Source: an uncultured Actinomycetota bacterium (lineage in GTDB: Bacteria > Actinomycetota > Actinomycetes > JAHEKZ01). From it: a stretch of 64,000 nucleotides of DNA. The notes beneath the pieces are model-generated. The model made no database searches. It was not told where the DNA came from and worked only from the letters and a program-made list of their open reading frames with translations. The stretch covers positions 475,555-539,554 of the forward strand of contig CAVSCR010000007.1 of assembly GCA_963726575.1 (NCBI GenBank), in the 5' to 3' direction. Both the position numbers and the translations under genes were made by a program. Shown piece after piece: positions 31,508 to 59,003 of this stretch. Within the stretch, counting starts at the first letter, position 1; every line of letters starts with the position of its first letter.

Positions 31508-34500
31508 GTGATCGCCTGCCCGGCGTGCGGTACCCAGAACCCTGAGGGCTTCGTCTTCTGTGGTCGATGCGCGACGCCGCTGACGGGCAAGTCGGCATCG
31601 GTCCGCGAAGAGCGGAAGGTGGTCACGGCCCTGTTCTGCGACCTTGTCGACTTCACCTCGACCTCTGAGTCCGTCGACCCCGAAGACGTCGACGCAATGC
31701 TCGCCGCGTATTTCGCCATGGCACAGGCGCGGATCGAGACCCACGGCGGAATCGTCGAGAAGTTCATCGGCGATGCCGTCGTCGGCATCTTCGGCGTTCC
31801 AGCCGCGCACGAGGACGATCCGGAGCGCGCTGTGCGTGCGGCACTGCGCATCGTCGAGGACGCCGAAAGCATGACGTCGGTGAACGACGCGCCGCTTCGC
31901 CTGCGGATCGGCGTCAACACCGGCGAGACGTTGGTGCGGCTGGGAGTTGTACCCGGCTCGGGTGACGGGTTCATCACCGGTGACGCGATCAACACCGCGT
32001 CTCGTATCCAGACGGTCGCACCTGACATGGGCGTTGCCGTCGGGCCGAGCACATTCGAGATCACCAAGTCGGTGTTCGACTACGCCGAGCTGCCGACCGC
32101 GACCTTGAAGGGCAAGTCAGTGCCCGTCGCGGTGTTTCACGCAAAGTCGCCACTCGCGCGCTTCGGCGCGGATGTGACCCGCAGCCACGACACACCGTTC
32201 GTCGGCCGGGAGGTGGACCTGGCCCTGCTGAAGGGGTTGTTCGACAAGACGGTCGCGTCGGCTGCCCCCCAGCTCGTGACCGTCGTCGGCGAACCCGGAC
32301 TCGGTAAGAGCAGGTTGGTGGCGGAGTTCTTTCGACACATCGACCGACTGCCGCAGCTCATCACGTGGCGACAAGGCAGCTGTCCGCCGTACGGAGAAGG
32401 AATCACCTTCTGGGCGTTGGGCGAGATCCTCAAGGCACACGCTGGGATTCTCGAGTCGGACTCACCAGAGGTTGCCTCCGCGAAGCTCGACGCCGTGCTC
32501 CCCGAGGACGGGGAGCGTGCCTGGTTTCGGCAACGGCTGCTGCCGCTGCTCGGAATCGAAGCGACGTCGACAGCCGAGCGAGAGGAGCTCTACACGGCGT
32601 GGCGGCGGTTCCTGGAGCACATCGCTGAAGCCGACCCCACAGTGCTCGTGTTCGAGGACCTGCATTGGGCCGACCCCGCGATGCTGGACTTCATCGAGCA
32701 TCTGGCCGACCGGGCCGGAGGCGTGCCCCTGCTGATCATCGGGACAAGCGCGTCCAGAGCTGTTCGAGAAGCACCCCGACTACGCGCGCGGCCTACGCAA
32801 CTCCACACCCATCAACCTGGGTCCACTGTCGGAGCAGGAGACCGCACGCCTCGTGTCGGCCCTGCTGGACAGCGCAGTCATACCGGCCGATCTGCAGGCG
32901 CCGCTGCTGGAACGGGCAGGCGGCAACCCGCTCTACGCCGAGGAATACGTGCGGCTGCTCAAGGACAAGAACCTGTTGACTCGCAACGGCGCCACTTGGC
33001 AGCTCGTCGAAGGAGCCGACATCCCCTTCCCCGACTCCGTGCAGGCGCTGATCGCGGCGCGGATCGACACGTTGTCGCCCGCACGCAAGGCCATGCTGGC
33101 GGACGCAGCCGTGGTCGGAAAGTCCTTCTGGGTCGGCGCCGTCGCGGCGATGGGGGACGTGCCGGAGGACGACGTGGCCGAGGCCATGCGGGAACTGACC
33201 CGCAAGGAGCTCGTCAGACCGGTGCGTCACTCCAGCATGGAGGGCCAGGCGGAGCTCGCCTTCTGGCACGTGGTCGCCCGCGATGTCGCCTACGGTCAAC
33301 TTCCGCGCGCGGTTCGAGCGGCTCGCCACGTGGCAGCGGCGGCGTGGATCGAGTCGCACTCAGGTGGACGAGCGGAGGACTCCGCCGATGTCCTCGCCTA
33401 CCACTACGCCACCGCGGTGGATCTGACCCAAGCCGCCGGTGAGCTCGACCAGGTGGCGACGCTCCAGGCCTCCGCCCTGCGCTTCTTGACCCTCGCCGGC
33501 GAGCGTGCCCTCGGCCTTGACACCACCGCCGCGCTCTCGAACTTTCAGCGAGCGTTGGACCTCACTGCACCCGCAGACCCGGCGCGTCCTAGTGCACTCG
33601 CCAAGTTCGGTGAGGCTGCGCTGCACGCCGGCCGTCTCGCTGAGGCGCAGCGAACCTTGGAGCAGGCGGAGGAGGCGTATCGGGCACGCGCCGATGTGCT
33701 GGCGCAAGCCCGCTGCCTGGTCCTCCTCTCACACGTGATGCACCGGCTAGGCGACAGTCGATGGGCAGAGCCTCCCGGCGAGAGCGGTGGAGCTGCTCGA
33801 GCCGCTGCCGCCGGGCCCAGCGATCATCGACGCCTACAGTGAGATCGCTCGACGCGACACGCTGCAGGCCAGGAACGAGTCGGCCATCAGCTACGCGAAC
33901 CTGGCGCTCGACCTGGCCGTTCGACCTCGGGCACGACCAGCCGGCTCGGGCGCTCGGTTACCGGGGTGGCGCACGGGCGAGCCTCGGGGACGCAGAAGGA
34001 CTCGACGACCTCCAGGAAGCGATCGTGTGGGCCACCGATGCGGGCCAGGGACGTGAAGTCGCGGTGCTCCACAACAACCTGGCTCTGGCGGTCTGGAAGT
34101 TCCACGGGTCTCGTGCCTCGCTCGAGGTCGCCGAAGCCGGTATCGCACTTCGCCACGGGCGCGAGGATTGGCCGAGATGTCCGAAGCGCTCGATAGCCAT
34201 GACGGTCGACCTGCTCAACGAGGTCGGCCGGGCCAGCGAGGCTCTCCTGGTGGCAGCAGAACTTGCACCGCGCCTGGAAGCCAGCGGTTCTGTCTTCAGA
34301 CCTGATAGGCGTGCGCCCGATTCAAGTAGTGGATTCTGGTGACGCAAGGCCGAGCGGCTGACGCGGCTCAGCTCTTGGACTGGATCGAGTCGACCTCGCG
34401 GATCACCGGCGATCCCGAAGACGTCGTGGTGGGCCTCGGGTCTGTTGCGCTGGCTCGAGCCGCCCTCGGGCAGGCGGCCACGGCTGCGGCCTTGTTGCGC

Positions 34501-53736: not shown

Positions 53737-56037
53737 TCAGGGCGTCAGGACCAGTGACCACGCCAGCTGGCTGCCGGAGGGCTGGTCGGTGCTGGCGGCG
53801 GTGCCCGGCACACTGCCGGGCGCGGCGGGGCCGGCGATGTCACCGATCAGGGCGTCGATGTGACCGCCACCGGTGCCGTCCGACGTCGAGCGCGCCGTCA
53901 TTCCGCTCGGGGTGATCCACCTGGTGGCGCTGGACGAACGGCTCGACCAGTACGACACCACCCACGACCCGGGGGTCGTGACGGTGGTGGCGGGGGTAGC
54001 GAACGTCGTCAGACTCGAGCTGCCGGTGCGGGCCACCGCGCTCGCCAACGGACCGGCGGCGTTGGTTCCGGAGTAGGCCAGCAGCTGCACCGTGGCCTTC
54101 GTCAACTGCGTCCCGAACGACACGGTCACGCTGTTCCCGGGGTCACTGCCGGTGGCAACGCGCTGCCACACGGTGCTGTACATGGTCGAGCTGCTCGCGG
54201 TCTTCACCACCTGCCATCCACTCGGGGCGGTCTGCGGTGTGGCTGTTGCGCTCGTGGCCACCAGGAGCAGGCCGTTACCTGCGCTCACGCTGGCCGGGAT
54301 CGTGATGGTCTGTGCCTTCGCATTTGCTGCGCTGGCGGTTGACGCAACGAATCGGATCCCGTTCCCCGGCGCGACCACGGTGACGTTGTGAGTGGTGGTC
54401 GTGACGTCGCCGCTCGAGTCGGTGATCGACAGCACCACGGCGTAGGTGCCGGGCGCCGCGAAGGTGTGGGACGTGGTGATGCCGGATCCCGCATTCACGT
54501 CACCGAAGTCCCAGGAGTAACCGGTCACGCTCGCCCCTGGGGCCGTCGAGGTCGAGGCGTCGAAGCTGCACGTCAGAGCACTGCACGACGACGTGAACGC
54601 GGCCGTCGCCGACACCACCGTGAGCTGCTGGCTCGTGGTCGCTGTGGCGCCGAGCCCGTCGCCGACGGTGACCGTGACGACGTAGGTGCCACCACTGGTG
54701 TAGTGGTGCGGGACCGAGGGCACGTCGGTGGTCTGCTGGCCCGTGCCGTCGCCGAAGTCCCACTGGTATGACGTGATGCCCGCAAGCGTTGAGCCGCTTG
54801 CATCAGCTGTGCAGTGCAGCAGGAGACACGAGACGGTCAAGGCCGCCTGGCTGGGCGGTGCGACCGTCACGATCTGTGACGCCGATGCGACCTGACCGTC
54901 GCCATCGGTCACGGTCAGCGAGGCGGAGTAGCTGCCGGCGTCGGTGTACGTGTGGGTGACAACAGCACCGCTTTGCGGTGGGCTCCCGTCCCCGAAGTCC
55001 CAGTCGTAGGACGACAGAGCTGTGCCCTGGGAGCCGGAGCCGTCGAAGGTGCACGTCAGGCCGCTGCACTGCGTGGAGATGTGAGCCGTCGGCGTGGCGG
55101 GTCCGGCCAGACCGAAGTCGGCGAGCAGGTCCGGTGCGCTGGAGGCCAGGCCCAGCTCGCTGACACCGAGCAGGTCCTCGGTGGCCCGCAACGTCGAGTA
55201 CTGCGTCAGCTTGCGGGTCGACGTCGTCCCGACGCTGTACGGGCTGATCACCAGCAGCGGGATGTGGCAGGACTGACTGGTGCTGTTCGTGCAGTCGACG
55301 CCCTTCAAGGTGCCGGCCGCTGAGCCTTCGTCGAACGTGACGATGACGACGGTCGAGCCCGAGGTGAACTCCGGGCTGTTCAGGACGGCAGGAAGGTTCG
55401 CGGACAACCACGAGTCGCCAGTGGCGATGCTGCCGCTGTGCATGTCGTTGGCAAGGTTCGGCGAGATGAACGAGAACGCCGGCAGGGTGTGGTTGGCCAA
55501 GTCGGTCGCGAGCTGGGTGTAGTTCACGTCGTTCGCCTTGCAGCTGTCCGGCGTGATGTCGGTGAAGTACAGCGCGGGGTTGTGGCGCGGCACGTACAGA
55601 CCACCGGAGTCCTGAACCCGGCGACAGGGCGTAGTCATGGACTCCTGGTACGCCCGCCAACTGCTCACCTGGGTGAACAGGTCGGGACCCGGCTTGGTGC
55701 ATGTGGTGCAGTCGGTGGCGGGAAGTTGAGCCAGAGGGAGCCCCGACAGGCCACCGATGTAGTTCGGCGCGCTCGGGTGGGTGATGCCCCACGCATTGGT
55801 GGCGGAGCCGTACTGGTTGGCCAGCGAGTTGAGGTACGGGGCCGACGACGACCCGATCACGTCGTTGTAGGAGCGGTTCTCCATCCAGACCCAGACGACG
55901 TGCTGGATCCCGCTGCGCGCCGCACCGGTCGTCGCAGCCCGCGCCACCGAGGTGGCAGTCAGCGCCCCCATCATGGAGACGACGGCCAGGGCGGACACCA
56001 CGATCGTGAGCAACGCAAGCCGGGCGGGCCTGGCCAA
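53737..56037 (-). CDS. Secreted phosphoesterase (phospholipase C / acid phosphatase family, PF04185-like) with four PKD domains and a C-terminal beta-rich domain
   Basis: Signal peptide, HVVWVWMENRSYNDV...HPSAPNY phosphoesterase motifs, then 4 repeats of the PKD consensus (YSWDFGDGS.../YQWDFGDGT...). Confidence 0.75.
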   Translation of the reverse strand: MARPARLALLTIVVSALAVVSMMGALTATSVARAATTGAARSGIQHVVWVWMENRSYNDVIGSSSAPYLNSLANQYGSATNAWGITHPSAPNYIGGLSGLPLAQLPATDCTTCTKPGPDLFTQVSSWRAYQESMTTPCRRVQDSGGLYVPRHNPALYFTDITPDSCKANDVNYTQLATDLANHTLPAFSFISPNLANDMHSGSIATGDSWLSANLPAVLNSPEFTSGSTVVIVTFDEGSAAGTLKGVDCTNSTSQSCHIPLLVISPYSVGTTSTRKLTQYSTLRATEDLLGVSELGLASSAPDLLADFGLAGPATPTAHISTQCSGLTCTFDGSGSQGTALSSYDWDFGDGSPPQSGAVVTHTYTDAGSYSASLTVTDGDGQVASASQIVTVAPPSQAALTVSCLLLHCTADASGSTLAGITSYQWDFGDGTGQQTTDVPSVPHHYTSGGTYVVTVTVGDGLGATATTSQQLTVVSATAAFTSSCSALTCSFDASTSTAPGASVTGYSWDFGDVNAGSGITTSHTFAAPGTYAVVLSITDSSGDVTTTTHNVTVVAPGNGIRFVASTASAANAKAQTITIPASVSAGNGLLLVATSATATPQTAPSGWQVVKTASSSTMYSTVWQRVATGSDPGNSVTVSFGTQLTKATVQLLAYSGTNAAGPLASAVARTGSSSLTTFATPATTVTTPGSWVVSYWSSRSSSATRWITPSGMTARSTSDGTGGGHIDALIGDIAGPAAPGSVPGTAASTDQPSGSQLAWSLVLTP

Positions 56038-56198
56038 CCGATCCCCTCCGGGCCCCCCCAGAGCTATGAGTCATGCGGCCTGGCGCGACTCACGTCCCGG
56101 CCGACACTGGCACCCTGCCACACATCGACGGGGTCGCGAACCACGGCGATCCCTCGCTGACGAGATAGATCGCCCGCTCCACGACAAAGATCGCCGAC

Positions 56199-56221
56199 CC
56201 TGTAGCAGGGTCGGCGCTGTA
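56199..56221. terminator. Perfect 10-bp inverted repeat GCCGACCCTG-tag-CAGGGTCGGC (candidate terminator for the small repeat gene, or 5'-UTR structure of the phosphoesterase gene)
   Basis: Read directly from the sequence. On the minus strand it is followed by GCGATCTTTGTCG. Confidence 0.3.
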
Positions 56222-56347: not shown

Positions 56348-56689
56348 TCAGTGGTTGTGCGAGAACCGGTGACCTTCGACGTCGGGGTTGTCGTCGTCGG
56401 AGTCGGCCGGGTGCCACCGGCGGTGGTGACCTTCGACGTCCAGTTCCTCTGTGTCGCCGTCGTCGGGACGGTGTGCGATGCGGTGGCCTTCGACGTCCAG
56501 CTCTTCGGTGCCGTCGTCGGGACGGTGTGCGATGCGGTGGCCTTCGACGTCCAGCTCTTCGGTGCCGTCGTCGGGACGGTGTGCGATGCGGTGGCCTTCG
56601 ACGTCCAGCTCTTCGGTGCCGTCGTCGGGACGGTGTGCGATGCGATGGCCTTCGACGTCCAGGTCGTTCCGCTCGGGTGTGTCGTTCAT
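56348..56689 (-). CDS. Small acidic histidine-rich tandem-repeat protein (six D-V-E-G-H motifs, predicted intrinsically disordered)
   Basis: ATG at 56689 with a GAAGGAG Shine-Dalgarno 6 nt upstream. Product MNDTPERNDLDVEGHRIAHRPDDGTEE(x4)...DVEGHRFSHNH. The ORF track starts 15 codons earlier. Confidence 0.55.
   Translation of the reverse strand: MNDTPERNDLDVEGHRIAHRPDDGTEELDVEGHRIAHRPDDGTEELDVEGHRIAHRPDDGTEELDVEGHRIAHRPDDGDTEELDVEGHHRRWHPADSDDDNPDVEGHRFSHNH
56424..56680. repeat. Tandem 54-bp direct repeats (3 perfect copies at 56482-56643, with degenerate copies on each side) inside the small His-rich gene
   Basis: Unit GGTGGCCTTCGACGTCCAGCTCTTCGGTGCCGTCGTCGGGACGGTGTGCGATGC repeats head-to-tail with 100% identity. 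Confidence 0.9.
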
Positions 56690-56717
56690 GTCGTACTCCT
56701 TCGGGTGGTCGCGCGCG

Positions 56718-56736
56718 GTGTGCGTGCGGGTCACAC
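56718..56736. promoter_or_regulatory. CRP/FNR-like palindrome GTGTGcgtgcgggtCACAC in the divergent intergenic region
   Basis: TGTG-N9-CACA is one nt longer than the canonical TGTGA-N6-TCACA. A Crp/Fnr-family regulator gene is 1.6 kb away. Confidence 0.3.
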
Positions 56737-56886
56737 GATCCCCGTGTGGGCGCTGCAGGTCCGCAAGGCGGATGACACCGTGAACGTCGGCTGGCTGACA
56801 GTCCCGACGATAGCCCGAAGTGACCGTGCCCGCTGCGGGCTTTCGCCTTCCTTCGCCATACTGCCCACCAACTGAAGGAGAAGGCG

Positions 56887-57516
56887 ATGGAACCGACCAG
56901 GGTCAGCGATGACACGTTCGCCACGCCGGAGTGGGCGGCCGCCCCTGACCTGCCGCCGCTCGTGGCCCGGCTGCTCGGCACGGTAGGGCCCCTCCTGGGG
57001 GCGGCCGCGTGCTCGGTGGCCCTCGTCGAGCGGGGCCGGGCGCTGCGGTTCATCGCCGCAACGGGCAAGGGGGCCCGGGACATCGTCGGCCAGTCGATGC
57101 CCACCGATCGGGGGGTGGCGGGCTGGGCGGTCACCACCGGTCAGGCCATCAGCGTGGGAGACGTCGAGTCCGACGCCCGCTTCCACCGCGACCTCGCCGA
57201 GTCCACCGGCTACGTGCCGCGCCAGATCACCGCGGTGCCGATCATGGGCGACGACGACGCCATGGGCGTCCTGGAGGTGCTCGACGGTGACCACGCGCAG
57301 ATGACGTCGCCGGCCGGCACCGCTGCGTTGCACGGGCTGGTGGCCACTACGGCCGACCTGATCGCCACGCTGGGGACCGGTTCGTCGAACTCGGCCAGCC
57401 AACGGTCGCTGACTGAGGCATTGGCTCGGCTCGACGACGCAGATCCCGACCTGGTGGAGCACCTCAGCGCCGTCATCCAAGCCCTGTCAGGTGGCCGCGG
57501 GGGATATCGCCGATGA
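56887..57516 (+). CDS. GAF domain protein
   Basis: GAF fold pattern (RGRALRFIAATGKGARDIVGQSMPTDRGVAGWAVTTGQAISVGDVESDARF). Shine-Dalgarno GAAGGAGAAGG upstream. ATGA overlap with the S8 gene. Confidence 0.75.
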   Translation: MEPTRVSDDTFATPEWAAAPDLPPLVARLLGTVGPLLGAAACSVALVERGRALRFIAATGKGARDIVGQSMPTDRGVAGWAVTTGQAISVGDVESDARFHRDLAESTGYVPRQITAVPIMGDDDAMGVLEVLDGDHAQMTSPAGTAALHGLVATTADLIATLGTGSSNSASQRSLTEALARLDDADPDLVEHLSAVIQALSGGRGGYRR

Positions 57517-58325
57517 TGCCCCACGGCGCCGACGGCATGGCCGCGGCGTTGGCCCAGCACGTTCCCACGCTCCCCATGGCCAGTCCGGCCTGGGAGTGGG
57601 CGACGCAGGGTGCCACCGGCGCCGGCATCACCGTGGGCATCATCGACAGCGGGATCGACCCCAAGCACGCCGATGTAGGGCCGATCAGCCGCTCGCTCCT
57701 GGCCACCCGCGACGACTCCGGTGAGGTCGTGGTGGTGGACGACGAGGAAGCCGTGGACGTGGTCGGGCACGGCACCGCCTGCGCCGCCATCATCCGGGGG
57801 CTGGCGCCAGAGGTTGAGCTCGTGTCGATCCGCGTGCTCAACGACGACCTCAAGGGTCATGCGCGCATGTTCGCGGCCGGCCTCGACTGGGCAGTGGAGA
57901 ATGGCATTTCGGTCGTGAACCTCAGCCTCAGCACCTCCAACGACGCCTGGTTCGCCTCCTTCCACGACCTCGCCGACCAGGCGTACTTCGCCGGCACCGT
58001 CCTGGTTGGCGCGCTCAACAACGTGCCGCGACCGAGCTTTCCCACCGAGTACGCGGCCGTGGTGTCGGTGGCGTCCCTGCCCGACAACGACGCCGGCCCG
58101 CTGGCGTACAACCCGAAGGGTCCGGCTGAGTTCGGAGCACCCGGCCTCGACGTCCGGGTGGCCTGGCTGGATGGTGGCCACGCCACGGTCACGGGCAACA
58201 GCTTCGCGTCGCCCTACGTGGCCGGGCTGGTGGCCCAGATGCGCAGCAAGCACCCGTGGCTCCAGCCGTTCCAGGTGAAAGCCGTGCTGCAGGCCATGGC
58301 GGTCAACGCCACGGCCGCCCCCTGA
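57513..58325 (+). CDS. Minimal intracellular S8 (subtilisin-like) serine peptidase, no signal peptide or pro-domain
   Basis: Catalytic triad contexts GIIDSGID (Asp), VGHGTACAAI (His) and TGNSFASPYVAG (Ser). 270 aa. Confidence 0.85.
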   Translation: MMPHGADGMAAALAQHVPTLPMASPAWEWATQGATGAGITVGIIDSGIDPKHADVGPISRSLLATRDDSGEVVVVDDEEAVDVVGHGTACAAIIRGLAPEVELVSIRVLNDDLKGHARMFAAGLDWAVENGISVVNLSLSTSNDAWFASFHDLADQAYFAGTVLVGALNNVPRPSFPTEYAAVVSVASLPDNDAGPLAYNPKGPAEFGAPGLDVRVAWLDGGHATVTGNSFASPYVAGLVAQMRSKHPWLQPFQVKAVLQAMAVNATAAP

Positions 58326-58340: not shown

Positions 58341-59003
58341 CTACCAGCCGGTGCGTTGGCGCAGGCCGGGCGGGTCGAGGATCTCGACCCTTCCCCGCGC
58401 GAGTCGGACCAGTCCCAGCTCCTCCAGCCGACGCAGCGCCTGGTTCGCCGTCGGTCGGGTCGTCCCGGCCAGCCCGGCCACGTCATCTTGGGTCAGCGGC
58501 ACGATCACGGGGACGCCGTCGTCGATGTACAGCCGGCCGACCTCGTACAACCGACGGGCCACCCGGCGGTCGACCGACACGAAGTGCGCCTCGGCCACCA
58601 GGCCGCTCAGGCGCTCGGCGCGAAGCGCGAGCAGCCGTAGGAACATGTCACTGACCTCGGGATAGGCGTGGCGCAACTCGTGGAAGGCGTCCTTGCGCAG
58701 CGTCAACGTCTCCACGGCCTCCAGCGCGACGATCGTGGCGGTGCGCTCGGCCCGGTCGATGAACAGAGCCATCTCGCCGAACACCTCACCTGGACCCATG
58801 ACCGACAACGTCACCGTCTCGCCGCGCACCGTCGAGACCCGGGCGGCGACGCGTCCGGTCTGGATGAGATGGACGACGTCTCCCGGGTCGCCCTCGTGGC
58901 AGACCACTTCACCGCGCGCGAACCGCCGGGGTCGACCGGCCTGCACGAGTGCGTCGCGCGCCGCGTCCGGCAACCCACTCGCGGCGTGCGGCGCGGTGGA
59001 CAT
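58341..59003 (-). CDS. Crp/Fnr family transcriptional regulator
   Basis: cNMP-binding domain (GEVFGEMALF) plus a C-terminal HTH (DVAGLAGTTRPTANQALRRLEELGLV). Confidence 0.8.
   Translation of the reverse strand: MSTAPHAASGLPDAARDALVQAGRPRRFARGEVVCHEGDPGDVVHLIQTGRVAARVSTVRGETVTLSVMGPGEVFGEMALFIDRAERTATIVALEAVETLTLRKDAFHELRHAYPEVSDMFLRLLALRAERLSGLVAEAHFVSVDRRVARRLYEVGRLYIDDGVPVIVPLTQDDVAGLAGTTRPTANQALRRLEELGLVRLARGRVEILDPPGLRQRTGW

Follow-up and report, generated by a model that had tools for sequence, protein, structure and literature searches.

Subtilisin-family (S8) serine proteases are known to cut peptides at short motifs or out of multi-copy precursors in both eukaryotes and bacteria. In the yeast alpha-factor system, tandem peptide copies lie in one precursor and are freed by the S8-family protease Kex2; the copy number varies, and the last unit lies at or near the stop codon. 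The specificity of subtilisins is dominated by their S4 and S1 pockets. In bacteria, the cyanobactin protease PatA cuts after G(L/V)E(A/P)S, and the class I lanthipeptide leader peptidase ElxP recognizes (D/E-5)(L/V-4)X2(Q-1) (PMC10885120). Here, we analyzed a stretch of 64,000 nucleotides (nt) from an uncultured Actinomycetota bacterium (hereafter the window), in which a small gene encodes a protein of 113 amino acids (aa) built from tandem modules around the motif D-V-E-G-H (DVEGH), next to genes for a GAF-domain protein, an S8 peptidase, and a Crp/Fnr-type regulator. The repeat gene is a member of a large unnamed tandem-module family, found mainly in Actinomycetota and Chloroflexota, and it forms a conserved gene module with its GAF, S8, and Crp partners. 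The reading that we favor by analogy, with a rough probability of 0.45, is that the repeat protein would be a dedicated tandem substrate or precursor, cut at each DVEGH by a GAF-regulated S8 protease.

Comparison with described systems

Among bacterial systems, the cyanobactin precursor PatE with its proteases PatA and PatG resembles the DVEGH module in having short cassettes in which a conserved recognition sequence lies beside hypervariable residues, and in being cut by S8 enzymes. The PatA site is also similar to D-V-E-G-H, as both have a hydrophobic residue at P4, Glu at P3, and a small residue at P2. However, the DVEGH module comes without a YcaO heterocyclase, a macrocyclase insert, or DUF domains, its modules are highly charged and not rich in Cys, Ser, Thr, and Pro, its partners are predicted to bind cyclic nucleotides (cNMP), and it is found in Actinomycetota and Chloroflexota. 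The window S8 protein scores 16 bits (E = 0.0039) against the PatA/PatG model TIGR03895, which has a cut-off of 421, and no YcaO or other tailoring enzyme is found among the window neighbors or recurs in the 119 listed neighborhoods of the family. ElxP and the other S8 leader peptidases of class I lanthipeptides, together with QhpE, are further cases of a small subtilisin that acts inside the cell on a dedicated peptide encoded alongside it and cuts at a short motif, and the ElxP pattern maps onto D-V-E-G-H; there, however, a single cut frees a modified core, whereas here we find up to 14 sites and no modification enzymes. QhpE (NF049966) is in fact the best curated match of the window S8 protein, with mycosin next, but its 119.4 bits fall short of the cut-off of 165, and no qhpC/qhpD, radical-SAM, or QhpC-like genes lie near the window S8 gene.

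The alpha-factor precursor and the fungal repeat proteins processed by Kex2 share their tandem units with the DVEGH proteins, which likewise end near the last module. In contrast, those are secretory precursors with a signal peptide and dibasic KR sites, cut by a P-domain kexin in the Golgi, whereas the window protein starts with the hydrophilic MNDTPERND (no signal peptide by eye), its candidate site is DVEGH and not KR, and its S8 partner consists of the catalytic domain only. For the GAF protein, the nearest solved relatives are cNMP-binding GAF domains, namely PDE2A GAF-B (E = 4.8e-9), PDE10A, PDE5/6, and CyaB2. As in the GAF-regulated cNMP enzymes to which it is most similar (PDE2A GAF-B and Anabaena CyaB2; E = 4.8e-9 to 7e-7), it is coupled to a catalytic partner, but here the GAF domain forms a polypeptide of its own, and it would regulate a protease. 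By analogy, the DVEGH module may be a variant of the theme of a tandem precursor with a subtilisin that falls outside the cyanobactin, Kex2, and leader-peptidase systems on the features above. What it would add to the known themes is a layer of cNMP sensing, for which proteases apparently offer no precedent: the open-access literature searched yielded no GAF-controlled protease, and nothing relevant on the motif or the gene combination was found in open-access text.

The DVEGH protein family

The window protein begins with a 9-aa leader (MNDTPERND), continues with three copies of LDVEGHRIAHRPDDGTEE, a fourth copy lengthened to 19 aa by an additional D, and two variants of the module, and ends in ...PDVEGHRFSHNH, with a 6-aa tail (RFSHNH) past the last His. 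An earlier note on this DNA had described perfect 54-nt units with six DVEGH motifs, a strong Shine-Dalgarno sequence (GAAGGAG, 6 nt from the ATG), and an acidic product with about 12% His, and all of these features are present. The units at 56482-56535, 56536-56589, and 56590-56643 are identical base for base (54/54), the six motifs follow each other with periods of 18, 18, 18, 19, and 19 aa, and the protein has an isoelectric point (pI) of 4.62, 12.4% His, 18.6% Asp, 13.3% Glu (Asp+Glu 32%), 8.8% Gly, and a grand average of hydropathy (GRAVY) of -1.63. Perfect periodicity, with base i equal to base i+54, spans 56456-56644, or 189 nt (3.5 units). Because no second period-54 run of at least 60 nt occurs elsewhere in the 64-kb window, the array is not due to chance.

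Since the window protein is short and repetitive, searches with this single sequence were weak. A word-indexed homology search found one relative only (P0001), and an exhaustive phmmer search returned 28 matches, of which only the small ones are family members. The small proteins of the same build that surfaced in the single-sequence searches were P0001, P0011, P0023, and P0027; the top-scoring large phmmer matches (P0002, P0003, P0005, P0006, and P0009) were rejected as unrelated repetitive proteins. An exact look-up of the protein, with either start codon, had no match in assemblies or cluster tables, Pfam gave nothing above E = 0.09, NCBIfam no family, and PADLOC nothing. A profile made from the alignment of three modules (E <= 1e-3) found 712 proteins among the 8000 candidates scored, including RefSeq entries such as WP_441923847.1. 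All 712 lack a Pfam domain and, where a source name is given, it is always "hypothetical protein," which agrees with the earlier note, where the module was not recognized as a described family.

At the DNA level, a pattern of two DVEGH motifs 21-51 nt apart, searched in species-representative genomes, matched at least 119 loci, nearly all of them small open reading frames (ORFs) with 2-14 modules. By record title, the matches listed include ~68 Actinomycetota (among them Nocardioides, Marmoricola, Geodermatophilus, Naasia, Jatrophihabitans, Gaiellaceae, and Solirubrobacterales), ~48 Chloroflexota, and three odd bins of metagenome-assembled genomes. These three loci (L041, L103, and L109) are labeled Kiritimatiellae, Candidatus Aldehydirespirator, and Steroidobacteraceae, and could reflect mis-binning or horizontal transfer; L109 has the typical Crp gene and cNMP-binding transporter of the family as neighbors on a 6.8-kb contig.

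The family module consists of an acidic run, D-V/T-E-G-H, and about five basic and hydrophobic residues, with 1-14 modules per protein. Among 129 complete small members, the period peaks at 15-18 aa and the number of modules ranges from 2 to 14, whereas L128, a relative found via the S8 search, has a single module. Within the motif, conservation across these members is 97% for D at -1, 97% for V/T, and 98% for E. The 3-4 residues preceding the motif are acidic, and past the His, basic and hydrophobic residues alternate over five positions, where acids hardly ever occur (spacing and logo from 129 and 247 proteins); bases are excluded ahead of the motif His, and acids behind it. All five motif codons vary synonymously (508 motif instances), which confirms that the sequence is coding and conserved at the protein level, as the earlier note had assumed for the window gene. 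Outside the motif, composition and charge are constrained rather than sequence, and no covariation was found. Many of the proteins (61/129) stop 4-6 residues past the last His, and P0011 ends exactly at ...DVEGH. Leaders at the N-terminus and followers at the C-terminus are clade-specific and flank a variable number of modules, and several loci hold two to three paralogous repeat genes. The window protein belongs to this family by its six D-[VT]-E-G-H motifs and by the GAF, S8, and Crp genes within a few kb.

Some members have additional parts. A conserved basic helical follower, e.g., ...EGHWMPDAGSSMRLAKARNSDIEREARQHQLANEARQ..., ends the Chloroflexota members at L053, L022, L102, L048, L006, L090, L089, and L019, and the single DVEGH of L128 (near 2655, + strand) also stands ahead of a follower of this type. 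Nocardioides-type members end in EGHVQPPRDxD, and neither this end nor the Chloroflexota follower has a Pfam match. In addition, some membrane-anchored Chloroflexota proteins (Table 1) carry two to three D[VT]EGH motifs, and after the last motif come a beta-like segment (AISVRFP..DAxAFRRRLL) and a transmembrane helix; these proteins may represent a second, folded context of the motif.

Gene neighborhood

The loci were fetched as 8-kb blocks, which usually cut one flank of the repeat gene, and neighbors were clustered from ORFs filtered by GC content at third codon positions (GC3), with coverage limits. Homologues of the window GAF, S8, and Crp proteins were found in 89/123, 84/123, and 86/123 loci, respectively. 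Within 3.5 kb of the repeat gene, GAF was present in 80 of 106 loci and S8 in 75 of 106, and in four of the five loci with room on both sides both were present. In the reverse direction, the loci retrieved by the S8 protein contained a DVEGH gene in all four assessable cases, one of them with a single motif, and the loci found by protein identity (L001, L002, and L004) have the same neighbors.

Two further components recur. The first is a transporter of the major facilitator superfamily (MFS), of the MFS_3 type (EntS-like), fused to a C-terminal cNMP-binding domain (MFS-cNMP), which is found in 59 of the 119 listed loci and often in the same operon. In Chloroflexota, for example, the order is MFS-cNMP, Crp, repeat gene, GAF, and S8, all on one strand and only a few bases apart. 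The second is a protein with zinc-ribbon, class III cyclase, and AAA_16 parts, which adjoins the module in about 16-17 of the listed loci. No other family recurred in more than 8 loci in the GC3-filtered clustering, and metal-handling, metal-sensing, or peptide-modifying genes were not recurrent among the listed neighborhoods. The only recurrent neighbors are thus the cNMP-binding regulators, the GAF protein, the S8 protease, the MFS-cNMP transporter, and the cyclase, so that every recurrent partner is a protease or a cNMP-binding protein.

The window contains the core of repeat, GAF, S8, and Crp genes without the MFS-cNMP exporter (Table 1). The GAF and S8 genes are translationally coupled via their ATGA overlap. 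Residues 26-265 of the S8 protein align to subtilisins, and no signal peptide or propeptide was seen, by eye on the translated residues only. Across 70 homologues from two phyla, with identities of 44-56%, its catalytic D, H, N (oxyanion), and S show a conservation of at least 95%. Among PADLOC defence models, the repeat and GAF proteins had no match, and the S8 and Crp proteins matched only generic subtilase and cNMP-domain models. The four core genes are flanked by genes unrelated to the module, namely the phosphoesterase-PKD gene and, at the opposite end, rhamnose-biosynthesis genes; the phosphoesterase-PKD protein has a signal-peptide-like N-terminus and is not a recurrent neighbor of the DVEGH family. 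A homologue of the cyclase protein (~36% identity by tblastn) is encoded in the window at 31514-33503 (+), 25 kb from the DVEGH module.

Table 1. Positions of the repeat gene, its signals, and its neighbors in the window, with examples of related genes at other loci (L numbers)
Feature	Position	Strand	Basis and remarks
DVEGH tandem-module protein, coding sequence, 113 aa	56348..56689	-	ORF translation; the ATG at 56687-56689 is the start
54-nt tandem array	56425..56662	-	Tandem Repeats Finder (TRF): period 54, 4.4 copies, 96% matches, score 421
Shine-Dalgarno sequence GAAGGAG	56696..56702	-	6-nt spacer to ATG; kept in L003, L125, L126, L127
Terminator-like hairpin	56192..56216	-	11-bp stem with 9 G-C pairs, then ATCTTTGTCG
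Divergent intergenic region, repeat gene / GAF gene	56690..56886	.	Alignment with L003, L125, L126, L127
GAF-domain protein, 209 aa	56887..57516	+	Pfam GAF_2, E = 3.7e-11; stop overlaps S8 start codon (ATGA)
S8 subtilisin-family serine peptidase, 270 aa, minimal, leaderless	57513..58325	+	Pfam Peptidase_S8, E = 1.5e-25
Crp/Fnr-type regulator (cNMP_binding + HTH_Crp_2), convergent with S8 gene	58341..59003	-	Domain matches
Phosphoesterase-family protein, 766 aa, three PKD domains	53737..56037	-	Downstream of repeat gene
MFS_3-cNMP fusion, examples	L004 1014-2702; L124 1-1350		
Membrane-anchored D[VT]EGH proteins	L040 6714-7496; L069 2129-2878; L076 1100-1789; L085 3-455; L092; L116 2025-3047		No Pfam match

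The repeat protein as a possible protease substrate

Because the repeat gene lies nearly always beside the pair of cNMP sensor and subtilisin, a substrate or precursor is likelier than a simple metal buffer. In the mechanism that we propose, the protease would recognize each DVEGH as a site of cleavage: the motif would fill P5-P1, its Val entering the hydrophobic S4 pocket and its His standing at P1, and the basic tail would provide the prime-side residues; mapping D-V-E-G-H on P5-P1 in this way leads to a predicted cut after the His. One translation product would then give several similar peptides of ~16-18 residues, e.g., RIAHRPDDGTEELDVEGH here. Cyclic nucleotides would control transcription via Crp, proteolysis via GAF, and, where it is present, export via MFS-cNMP. 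Unequal recombination between identical units would change the copy number and with it the dose, and the non-motif residues would drift or diversify quickly. The precursor model would explain why proteins end at or a few residues past the last His, as cleavage would occur after this residue, and it would also explain leaders and followers around a variable number of modules and the paralogous repeat genes. A Cu/Ni-binding N-terminus of the ATCUN type (amino-terminal Cu and Ni binding), E-G-H, would arise only from a cut between V and E, and the P5-P1 analogy favors a cut after His.

On the other hand, several points weigh against processing, which we infer from gene linkage and analogy. The S8 protein reaches the cut-off of none of the curated leader-peptidase families, and the ligand class of the GAF domain, a cyclic nucleotide, is suggested by its nearest solved relatives alone. 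A peptide-modifying enzyme is absent, as is an exporter in the window, and peptides of 16-18 residues would be unusual cargo for an MFS pump. The variable part, constrained in composition, would also fit an intact, charge-patterned disordered protein, and the hairpin meander predicted for the window protein, with E-G at the turn, would make a poor protease substrate.

A broader proposal, which we regard as rather doubtful, is that the DVEGH array, GAF, S8, Crp, MFS-cNMP, and cyclase together make up a phylum-spanning "cyclic-nucleotide-gated peptide factory." A rise in cyclic AMP or cyclic GMP would switch transcription on, activate an intracellular subtilisin allosterically by means of a GAF subunit on its own polypeptide, and open an exporter gated by cNMP. 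The state of a second messenger would thereby be turned into a burst of strain-specific peptides, cut from the tandem precursor, that would signal between cells or serve as secreted effectors.

Alternative explanations

Of the alternatives to the substrate reading, the one that survives best, and which we still consider unlikely, is that the protein is functional when intact. Its multivalent DVEGH array would act as a pseudosubstrate, inhibitor, or scaffold of the GAF-S8 pair, or would bind another partner with turnover controlled by the protease. The linked genes fit this view just as they fit the substrate model, and the conservation of a charge pattern only, without covariation, outside the motif is consistent with it. 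The basic helical C-terminal domain of Chloroflexota and the relative with a single motif suggest a function beyond peptide release, and the motif also precedes the beta-like segments of membrane-anchored proteins. However, the catalytic apparatus of S8 is fully intact in all 70 homologues, the motif fits the substrate patterns of S8 leader peptidases, and a copy number of 1-14 that shifts between near-identical strains would be odd for a stoichiometric regulator.

We see a still smaller chance that the protein is a metal-binding (Ni/Zn/Cu) buffer or chaperone, as the earlier note suggested, or a protectant of the hydrophilin type, working through its Asp, Glu, and His residues, with neighbors that are only regulatory or coincidental. 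The acidic, hydrophilic, and His-containing composition given above is in line with such a role, as are the H-x3-H pair in every module of the window's subclade, the invariant D, E, and H of the motif, and the soil and desert lineages among the carriers, e.g., Geodermatophilus. Known His-rich metal binders (Hpn and the tails of HypB and SlyD), hydrophilins, and late embryogenesis abundant (LEA) proteins resemble the window protein in its small size, strong hydrophilicity, and abundance of Asp, Glu, and His. Unlike Hpn-type proteins, the window protein has 12% His, with about one His per module across the family, no His clusters (a single HH pair), and no nickel, urease, hydrogenase, or other metal-related context. 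Richness in His, which the earlier note had taken as a trait of the protein, does not extend to the family: one His per module is invariant, many tails are without further His, and the second His (HxxxH) is confined to the window's subclade. The metal-binding role further finds no recurrent metal transporter, metallochaperone, or metal-sensing regulator in the listed neighborhoods, the linkage to protease and cNMP proteins is far too consistent for coincidence, and metal ligation leaves the invariant Val and Gly unexplained. Hydrophilins are defined by Gly above 6% and a mean hydrophilicity above 1 (a Kyte-Doolittle average below -1). With 8.8% Gly and its GRAVY value the window protein falls within this definition, as the earlier note had proposed, but the definition carries no mechanistic weight, and no LEA or dehydrin Pfam motif is present in the protein.

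It is very unlikely that the modules form a folded beta-hairpin repeat, in which each V-E-G-H would form the turn between a paired acidic and basic strand, giving a meander with a row of His and Glu along one edge. In its favor, AlphaFold2 (single sequence) predicts eight strands for the window protein, from E8-12 to E69-73, with E-G at the turns (predicted local distance difference test, pLDDT, 65-75; predicted template modeling score, pTM, 0.40), the residues past the His alternate between basic and hydrophobic, and the membrane proteins with the motif run on into beta-like segments. Against it, Pro and Gly abound in many tails, and regular artefacts, in our experience, arise easily when perfect repeats are modeled from a single sequence. 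Because acid/base covariation at cross-strand positions was looked for and not found, and the typical relative P0030 is predicted as coil (AlphaFold2, pTM 0.15), the hairpin was not taken as the fold of the family. The disorder expected in the earlier note agrees with the model of the typical relative, but not with the moderate-confidence meander of the window protein. Finally, a non-coding open tandem repeat is effectively refuted, and we give very little weight to a repeat inflated in assembly: GC3 is below that of the neighbors, the antisense frame is open, and short reads are ill suited to assembling perfect 54-nt units, but hundreds of homologues hold the motif in the same frame with synonymous variation, the Shine-Dalgarno sequence, start codon, and N-terminal leader are kept in relatives, and arrays are present in independent assemblies.

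Copy-number variation

The array is hypervariable between strains, as the earlier note had anticipated from its perfect units. The clearest case is the comparison of L003 and L126, which have flanks that are 99% identical and arrays of 2 vs. 4 modules, with a 114-nt indel of two modules. In independent assemblies of close relatives, whose S8 proteins are 79-86% identical to that of the window, the arrays have 2, 4, and 4 modules, compared with 6 here, the array of L127 having 4. In these relatives, the leader MN[DE]TPER..LDVEGH is kept and the module tails vary (RIAHRP, KAKHVA/RAAHNP, and SFKHQKP). Across the family, an adjacent pair of perfectly identical modules occurs in 23 of 129 genes, and some genes have 8-10. 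As a hypervariable locus, the DVEGH array could be used to type strains.

Implications

If the broader proposal of a peptide factory is true, the S8 protein would be the first cNMP/GAF-regulated protease, and the module would be a ribosomal multi-copy peptide pathway without modification enzymes. If the genes are linked for the reason that their arrangement suggests, the repeat gene would be the output of an unnamed signaling module that is conserved in two major soil phyla and has neither a family model nor a literature. Proteases would then join the few enzyme classes under the control of cNMP-binding GAF domains, the puzzling MFS transporters that are fused to cNMP-binding domains would gain a function, and eukaryotic tandem-repeat propeptides would have a bacterial counterpart. 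Cultured carriers exist (e.g., Nocardioides sp. Root240, Marmoricola sp. RAF53, Geodermatophilus amargosae, and Naasia lichenicola), which makes the prediction directly testable. The DVEGH family shows, in addition, that many repetitive mini-ORFs listed as "hypothetical" in high-GC genomes are real genes.

Expression signals and codon usage

The start codon of the repeat gene is supported by the leader MN[DE]TPER common to relatives. An upstream GTG at 56734 was rejected as the start, as this extension is conserved as DNA only (5' untranslated region and Shine-Dalgarno sequence) and fails in L127. In the alignment of the divergent intergenic region, three blocks are conserved (56718-56740, 56773-56802, and 56852-56863) that are probably promoter or operator sequences, the first of which contains a GTGTG-N9-CACAC repeat. 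By reading the sequences, a clean Crp site (TGTGA-N6-TCACA) was not found in 56690-56886, the intergenic region has no match to the sigma-70 consensus, and no Rfam family overlaps it or the repeat-gene region. The terminator-like hairpin lies 131 nt 3' of the stop codon of the repeat gene, where one site was found vs. 0.4 expected in shuffles.

The GC content of the repeat ORF by codon position is 0.83/0.38/0.79, and the frame antisense to it is also open. Its third positions are thus GC-biased, which the earlier note had named as a mark of coding sequence, yet GC3 is below the 0.88-0.91 of the neighboring genes. Among the 508 motif instances, Glu is encoded by GAA in 27% and Gly by GGT in 30%, which is high for genomes of ~70% GC; one possibility is that this excess comes from avoiding GAGG-like internal Shine-Dalgarno strings.

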